From a virus (taxonomy: Duplodnaviria > Heunggongvirae > Uroviricota > Caudoviricetes), in the IMG/VR virus record IMGVR_UViG_2713896799_000019: a stretch of DNA of 14,514 bases; one strand, written 5' to 3'. The first letter of the stretch is position 1, and each line of letters starts with the position of its first letter. This document shows, piece after piece, positions 13,860 through 14,514 of this stretch. The notes beneath the pieces are model-generated. The model saw nothing but the letters and a program-made list of their open reading frames with translations. It was not told where the DNA came from and ran no database searches. Both the position numbers and the translations under genes were made by a program.

Positions 13860-14045
13860 TGTCAACGGGCAAAAAAATTTTCGTTATCAGGAATGTATAA
13901 AATTAAATCAATTGAGCAAAAAATCCTTTCTGCAAAACTAAAAAAGATTTCAATAAAATCAGGCAGTTAAAAACGCTGAAAAACGGTATAAAAAAGCATC
14001 TCAAAATCCTGTTTTTTCTTTCAGATACAATATCTTATTTGATTT
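13860..14045. promoter_or_regulatory. AT-rich attP P-arm-like region (candidate integrase arm-site and IHF binding region) directly next to the prophage/host junction
   Basis: About 185 bp with many A-tracts (caaaaaaatttt, aaaaaag, ataaaatcagg, aaaatcctg) and no convincing ORF. It abuts the point where ompW homology begins. Confidence 0.45.
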
Positions 14046-14053
14046 TTTTAAAC

Positions 14054-14176
14054 CTGCCAGTGTGGTACATGGATATCGATACCACCGCCAATTATAAGCT
14101 GGGCGGTGCACAGCAACACGATAGCGTACGCCTCGATCCGTGGGTGTTTATGTTCTCAGCAGGATATCGTTTTTAA
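14054..14176 (+). pseudogene. ompW: Displaced 3' end of ompW (last ~40 codons), left at attR by prophage insertion
   Basis: The translation ...VWYMDIDTTANYKLGGAQQHDSVRLDPWVFMFSAGYRF* matches the C-terminus of E. coli OmpW as remembered. The upstream in-frame sequence (...DTISYLIFLNLP) is not OmpW, and there is no start codon, RBS or the N-terminal ~170 codons. Confidence 0.8.
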
Positions 14177-14190
14177 TTCCGCACAAAAAC

Positions 14191-14211
14191 GACCCCGTAA
14201 TATACGGGGTC
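14191..14211. terminator. Bidirectional terminator between the convergent ompW and yciE
   Basis: Perfect 9 bp inverted repeat gaccccgta-ata-tacggggtc. Confidence 0.6.
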
Positions 14212-14235
14212 AATAAGGACATGGTATAAAGGGTA

Positions 14236-14514
14236 TTATTTCTTCGCTTCTACGCCATCAGTTTCAGAGCGAATTAAAAATTTCTCAGTTGTTTGCGGAA
14301 TATTCTGAATCAGCCAGTCGGCCATTTGCTTTTCCTCATTTAAAATCGCTTCGATGGTTGGAATTGAAGCTGTATCACCGGCATTTTTTGCTGCTGCTAA
14401 TAGTGAGGTGTAACAGGCGATTTCAAATTGCTCGAAGACATATCCGCTAATAGAGCCTTTGACTATTTCATCAGAAGGGAATATACCACCGATTGACTGC
14501 CCAAGCGCAGCCAT
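14236..14514 (-). CDS. yciE: YciE-like ferritin-like (DUF892) protein, C-terminal 92 codons; the start lies beyond the window
   Basis: Minus-strand ORF ending ...AKNAGDTASIPTIEAILNEEKQMADWLIQNIPQTTEKFLIRSETDGVEAKK*, open to the window edge. It matches my recollection of E. coli YciE, and it is convergent with the ompW 3' end as in the K-12 ompW-yciE locus. Confidence 0.7.
   Translation of the reverse strand: MAALGQSIGGIFPSDEIVKGSISGYVFEQFEIACYTSLLAAAKNAGDTASIPTIEAILNEEKQMADWLIQNIPQTTEKFLIRSETDGVEAKK

Follow-up and report, generated by a model that had tools for sequence, protein, structure and literature searches.

The window analysed here, a 14,514-bp stretch of DNA, ends at the boundary between a lambda-like prophage and its bacterial host. 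Judged from its sequence, the interval 13866-14178 is the attR of this prophage, which is of the published PPompW type and lies in ompW (formerly yciD), at the 3' end of the gene. We consider it very probable that the prophage entered by tyrosine-integrase recombination and that a substitute end for ompW is supplied at the other prophage end, attL. The junction is real and ordinary; it is already known, the site having been named and published.

The window corresponds without mismatch to bases 3-14516 of LFZJ01000009.1, a contig of 17,188 bp from draft assembly GCA_001264215.1. In pairwise alignment, positions 14058-14300 were 100% identical to K-12. This identical segment starts with CAGTGTGG and covers the ompW stop codon, the intergenic hairpin and part of yciE. 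Alignment in the source contig showed that the identity persists from 14300 to the end of the window at 14514. Uninterrupted E. coli genomes aligned with the window from 14051 onward only, both with the query 13700-14514 and with 13900-14130. Positions 14051-14057 are phage-side bases that are partly ompW-like, reading AACCTGC vs AACATGT, and the two mismatches (14053 and 14056) are phage-derived. Further left, the P arm showed no similarity to uninterrupted ompW loci in alignments to K-12 and to uninterrupted genomes. When translated, the frame upstream of the junction reads ...LIFLNLP with stops before it, and its codons are unrelated to OmpW. GC content is 0.36-0.37 over 13750-14199 vs approximately 0.50 farther upstream. 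The preliminary description of this DNA, made from the sequence alone, had placed a prophage in the 3' end of ompW, with AT-rich phage DNA and non-OmpW codons immediately upstream of a junction near 14045-14065. All of this held up: K-12 identity begins at 14058, lambda-like tail genes lie upstream, and sequence upstream of 14051 does not continue into ompW.

The crossover could be narrowed by comparing attB, attL and attR in a four-way alignment. Left of 14058, where CAGTGTGG begins, attR is phage-type and attL host-type; to the right of 14079 the two are the other way round. The types switch either side of a shared 22 bp, indicating that the crossover took place within 14058-14079. Alignment with an uninterrupted ompW-yciE locus, which had been proposed as a check, formed part of this comparison, which defined the core (Table 1). 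Aligned with each other, the two F1022 copies of the 121-bp att span, at attL and at attR, were approximately 75% identical. An attL/R of 121 bp has been described for the lambda-like PPompW prophages (Nakamura et al. 2021, PLoS Pathog, PMC8112680), and this span equals 14058-14178 of the window. As in a PPompW-type attR, the 3' end of host ompW, with yciE continuing from it, starts at the known left boundary of that att site, and the genes immediately on the phage side of the junction are lambda-like by their Pfam families, called on the identical contig.

Table 1. Features assigned in the window, and OmpW tail alleles of K-12 and related lysogens. Positions are those of the window unless a locus (L number) is named.
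Feature	Position	Strand	Description
Lambda-like prophage late (tail) region	1..12988	+	ORF list and Pfam on gene calls of the identical source contig
Tail assembly chaperones	within 1..12988	+	Pfam
Tape measure	835-3456	+	Pfam
M/L/K/I homologues	within 1..12988	+	Pfam
J tail tip	5864-9565	+	Pfam
Lom	9632-10231	+	Pfam
Side tail fibre	10290-12386	+	Pfam
DUF4376 protein	12386-12988	+	Pfam
ORF6N-domain gene	about 13025-13590	-	Pfam
C4 antisense RNA	13641-13725	-	Rfam match, 78.9 bits
isrK sRNA	13753-13829	-	Rfam match, 72.7 bits
Terminator-like hairpin in isrK region	13774-13757	-	Terminator scan
Near-consensus promoter TTGACA-18-TATATT	13865-13836	-	Heads the last phage module before attR
P arm of attR	13866..14057		AT-rich phage DNA, GC ~0.36, between last phage promoter and core
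Orphan ompW 3' fragment, pseudogene	14051..14176	+	38 true OmpW codons V175-F212 and TAA (14174-14176)
Core / crossover region	14058..14079		22 bp, CAGTGTGGTACATGGATATCGA; identical in attB (K-12), attR (window, F1022) and attL (F1022, GF4)
Host copy (B' side) of imperfect 121-bp att duplication	14058..14178	+	Core to just beyond ompW stop codon
Native ompW/yciE intergenic hairpin	14190..14212		9-10 bp G+C-rich stem; identical to K-12
yciE 3' part	14236..14514	-	C-terminal 92-93 of 168 codons; convergent with ompW, runs off window
OmpW tail, K-12 host			TTANYKLGGAQQHDSV
OmpW tail, allele A (GF4, F1022)	L005 16387-17025, L007 8215-8853	-	TTASYKFNGTPVKDAV
OmpW tail, allele B (O157, 2014C-3655, ST131)	L022-L024 96-734		TTAKYKSGVTTVKDSV
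OmpW tail, allele C (STEC2017-197, A27)	L025-L026 96-749		TTAKYKSDGRKLAKGSYSDNV; 5 residues longer

On the host side of the junction, an orphan OmpW tail beside convergent yciE had been reported, with the final ~40 ompW codons present. The count was close: three partly ompW-like phage codons precede the 38 host codons, giving 41 if they are included. The fragment lacks a signal peptide and the N-terminal 174 codons, so that the window holds no OmpW-family gene with a complete reading frame, signal peptide and eight beta-strands over ~212 aa. PGAP calls the equivalent 126 bp in GF4 and F1022 'OmpW family outer membrane protein, incomplete, missing N-terminus', which agrees with the translation. 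Expression of the orphan tail is discounted: in frame, only TTG at 14039 and ATG at 14069 could serve as starts, with no recognisable ribosome-binding site and no signal peptide.

The ompW terminator and yciE had also been described as intact. The hairpin and the yciE part are indeed identical to K-12, but yciE is present only in part. The hairpin at 14190-14212 is present, but a terminator scan placed its T-run on the minus strand, the yciE side, and it has no U-run on the ompW strand. It therefore reads as the yciE terminator. Folding gave -16.0 kcal/mol for the plus strand and -18.3 kcal/mol for the minus strand.

The attL site is absent from the window and from its 17-kb draft contig, and whether it supplies a substitute 3' end had rightly been left open in the preliminary description. 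Related lysogens answer this for their own prophages. The window junction is 99.1-99.6% identical in GF4 and RM9088, the GF4 attR is 99.1% identical to that of the window over 815 bp, and the P arm of the window has near-identical counterparts in the attR of GF4 and of F1022. At the far prophage end in GF4 and F1022, the gene order is yciC - ompW - integrase - excisionase. The ompW gene there is complete (639 bp, WP_000737228.1) and not a pseudogene. It encodes a hybrid OmpW of 212 aa that is 96% identical to K-12 OmpW, with all eight differences in residues 185-196. The GF4 and F1022 prophages are collinear, with attL 28-50 kb from attR. A complete ompW adjoins an integrase gene also in five lysogens of different lineages: O157:H7 2149, 2014C-3655 (where the integrase is frameshifted), ST131 4433, STEC2017-197 and A27.

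Full-length, non-pseudogene ompW was thus found at attL in 7/7 related lysogens examined, with 212 or 217 codons of which the last ~30 are phage-supplied. A cognate duplicated att and a tyrosine integrase were likewise present at the other prophage end in all seven. In these relatives, a diverged substitute end is joined in frame to give a full-length hybrid at attL, which is how integration that reconstitutes its target gene is recognised, and the complete ompW comes with the duplication. The phage substitute tail is approximately 75-80% identical to the host ompW tail at the DNA level (75% over 119 nt for the attL of GF4 and F1022, and 75-78% across the hybrid genes of the relatives). Folding predicted a hairpin with a U-run 3' of the substitute stop codon (-14.7 kcal/mol, z = -5.2), whilst a consensus terminator scan did not flag this P' arm hairpin. 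A search of the phage collection returned no free-phage record covering at least 80% of the P arm and core; matches were to the C4/isrK region or to PPompW prophage ends.

In the mechanism we propose, a tyrosine integrase would insert the prophage into the 3' end of ompW by site-specific recombination. The attP would carry an imperfect copy (~75-80% identical) of the last ~120 bp of ompW, as seen in the relatives, and strand exchange would occur within the 22-bp block common to phage and host gene (14058-14079). At attL, host ompW codons 1-174 and the core would be fused in frame to the phage replacement of the last ~30 codons, followed by the phage-supplied hairpin with its U-run and then by the convergent integrase gene. 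At attR, the end carried by the window, the displaced host 3' end (38 codons, stop and native hairpin) would be left between the tail-fibre end and yciE as an untranslated, signal-less pseudogene fragment. We infer that the source genome GCA_001264215.1 holds the same attL on another draft contig, and its hybrid OmpW is presumably expressed and functional. An intact hybrid ompW at attL together with a silent orphan tail at attR is the most likely state of the source genome. The orphan tail and core remain a substrate for excision and may possibly also be usable for secondary integration. Excision to a circular attP has been shown for the PPompW of O145:H28, and ompW-like att copies within prophages are used for secondary integration (PMC8112680).

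This arrangement matches other described systems to differing degrees. PPompW prophages of STEC and EPEC (Nakamura et al.) and Stx2a phages at yciD insert at the same place, the 3' end of ompW, and have a matching att span of 121 bp. Their layout is also that of the window's relatives, siphovirus-type prophages with the integrase by a complete ompW and tail-fibre genes by an ompW remnant of ~119-126 bp. The window P arm is however only ~83.5% identical to the O145:H28 PPompW records, its closest counterparts being GF4, F1022 and RM9088, and its host flank is K-12-identical, unlike the STEC hosts of PPompW.

Campbell's insertion-site work provides a precedent. In phage 21 and e14, which integrate at icd, and with many integrases that use tRNA genes, a substitute 3' end borne by attP rebuilds the target gene. 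Like these elements, the prophage studied here is of a kind with a diverged 3'-end copy in attP, a short identical crossover block, a functional hybrid at attL and an orphan at attR. Unlike them, its target encodes an outer-membrane beta-barrel, and the inferred surface loop differs by 7-8 aa or, in one allele, by five additional residues, instead of being nearly synonymous. The lambda attR (POB') also lies beside the tail-fibre/b-region end, with an AT-rich arm and a short core flanked by partial bacterial homology. By contrast with lambda, the bacterial site and core are different, the att homology is 121 bp and imperfect vs 15 bp, and no integrase was seen in the window.

The preliminary description had further suggested consequences for phenotypes linked to OmpW, such as colicin S4 sensitivity. 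This would require that ompW be truly inactivated, with no in-frame substitute at attL through decay, deletion or an IS, so that the strain lacks OmpW and resists colicin S4. We judge this highly improbable. Its attraction is that attL is out of sight in the window and contig, and that ompW-site prophages are often degraded or IS-bearing; among the relatives, GF4 has a truncated portal gene, F1022 an IS1 and 2014C-3655 the frameshifted integrase. Even with that frameshift, however, ompW was complete at all seven attL sites, and a named ompW gene was listed in every one of 16 sampled attL search hits that took in the integrase junction. Moreover, because attP itself carries the substitute end, each integration event brings one along. 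For Stx2a phages at yciD, too, ompW has been described as full length with its end coming from the phage (PMC8456039). Together with the seven relatives, this makes it unlikely that the source strain has lost OmpW or changed in its colicin S4 response. Colicin S4 has been proposed to bind an OmpW helix with D116, H117 and E120 of the mature protein (PMC2649078). This helix is encoded upstream of the junction, so sensitivity should be retained.

An alternative that leaves attR genuine is, if anything, less probable still. Here the prophage ends would have been separated by inversion or recombination between lambdoid prophages, leaving the ompW hybrid and integrase distant and a chimeric element by yciE. 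Prophages at ompW recombine with other prophages, and inversions between the ompW and ydfJ prophages have been reported (PMC8112680), so the two prophage ends need not face each other in the source genome. The tail module is also shared with prophages at other sites. A J protein identical over 1,233 aa occurs in prophages of GCA_026135315.1, GCA_047262175.1 and GCA_047261955.1 at another chromosomal site, adjoining an ABC-transporter operon and phoQ/phoP (L016-L018). Such identity indicates that the tail module is exchanged between prophages with different integration modules, and, the module being mosaic, the half nearer to int may belong to another type. Whole-window searching found no identical prophage among complete E. 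coli genomes; the best matches were 94-97% at other loci and 90% at ompW. Against separated ends, no rearrangement breakpoint is indicated in the window, and the closest attR relatives, GF4 and F1022, are collinear with attL at the distance given above. Finally, that the contig is chimeric, with phage and ompW sequences wrongly joined in assembly, can all but be dismissed. The draft is error-prone, and its many single-base homopolymer indels vs K-12 just right of the window betray poor reads. An identical switch point, to the base, nevertheless occurs in 1,159 complete genomes, and the junction is near-identical in GF4 and RM9088.

Integration at ompW with a rebuilt gene at attL, the reading we favour, describes a common event. 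The attL-type junction of integrase and ompW was found in 1,572/5,426 complete E. coli genomes and the attR-type junction in 1,159 of the same set. Few sites in E. coli are used more often by lambdoid phages, and between about a fifth and a quarter of complete genomes have this one occupied. Sampled complete O157:H7 genomes carry a prophage at ompW. A proteome of O157:H7, from a strain that may carry such a prophage, lists YciD among the abundant outer-membrane proteins (PMC3210124). GenBank PPompW records (LC567818-LC567841) carry a 'duplication due to insertion' feature. Correct att boundaries aid the delimiting of prophages at this site, which hosts effector-carrying and Stx2a phages. A 126-bp 'OmpW family' fragment beside yciE is accordingly a prophage scar and no evidence for OmpW loss. 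Annotators who meet it should seek the intact hybrid ompW next to an integrase.

The one possibly new angle concerns the phage-supplied ends: OmpW is a known colicin receptor, and these ends change what is inferred to be its last surface loop. At least three alleles of these ends were found (Table 1), differing only between the last two beta-strands at residues ~185-196. The flanks ...VWYMDID and RLDPWVFMFSAGYRF are invariant across alleles, and the strands and the terminal YRF are unchanged. Codon changes from the host tail number 11 synonymous and 8 non-synonymous in allele A, compared with 10 synonymous and 7 non-synonymous in allele B. From the eight-strand topology with periplasmic termini (2F1T, 2F1V, 2MHL), the variable segment would be the fourth extracellular loop. 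Neutral divergence in an unconstrained loop accounts adequately for the alleles. That the substitute ends instead represent lysogenic conversion of a surface loop, in which integration swaps the last inferred OmpW loop for a phage allele, is unlikely, and we raise it for what it would imply. An OmpW homologue is a phage receptor in Serratia. Were OmpW-dependent phages or bacteriocins to make contact with this loop, integration of any PPompW-type phage would alter the receptor type of its host; the attR orphan tail would then store the original allele, to be restored on excision.

The orphan tail at attR in strain R13 (L003 4250-4441) is a different, longer allele (...TEVKYKSNGAVLPAGRYSDNV...), indicating that the loop varies on the host as well as the phage side. 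In R13, trpA directly follows the orphan ompW tail, and yciE, yciF and yciG are absent at that locus.

The arms of the att site contain a candidate integrase arm-type site, TCTGCAAAAC. One exact copy occurs in the window, at 13929-13938 in the P arm; over the whole window 1.13 copies are expected by chance, so that the count itself does not exceed chance. In the P' arms of relatives it stands in tandem after the substitute ompW stop codon, with three copies in GF4 (L007 8170-8215, minus strand) and five in F1022 (L005 about 16290-16385, minus strand). The assignment is suggestive, resting on the position in a 190-bp P arm and the tandem repeats in P' arms and not on copy number. Copy number varies between otherwise near-identical phages.

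The prophage genes within the window are those of a lambda-like late region (Table 1), and on the map of lambda-type prophages the tail-fibre end is the attR end. Lom is common to many prophages and uninformative as a marker by protein look-up, and an exact-protein look-up gave no match for the DUF4376 protein. The prophage part within the window contains no T3SS effector genes and no stx. On the minus strand from 13865 to 13025, the order is promoter, isrK, hairpin, C4 RNA and ORF6N gene, reading inward from the prophage edge. This module resembles the c4-ant immunity/antirepressor cassette of P1/P7 type.

The source contig continues 2.7 kb beyond the window through yciE, yciF and yciG into trpA. 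Over ~1.2 kb to the right of the ompW stop codon, it shows no substitutions relative to K-12 but has 11 single-base indels, almost all of them within short homopolymer runs. Indels at source contig positions 14532-15400 break yciE and yciF into short ORFs. As all differences from K-12 are single-base indels with no substitutions, these breaks are likely draft sequencing errors and not real pseudogenes. A Shigella host, which the broken yciE and yciF might have suggested, was rejected on the same grounds. The host backbone looks K-12-identical.

In GF4 and F1022, YadA-like (Eib-type), sigma-factor-like and DinI-like genes lie between the tail-fibre genes and the ORF6N gene (L001 16358-17800; L004 29506-30963). 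The window prophage is without this ~3.5-kb YadA-like cargo block, whose place corresponds to 12988-13025. The P-EibA phage record AF151091 also has an OmpW-like tail.
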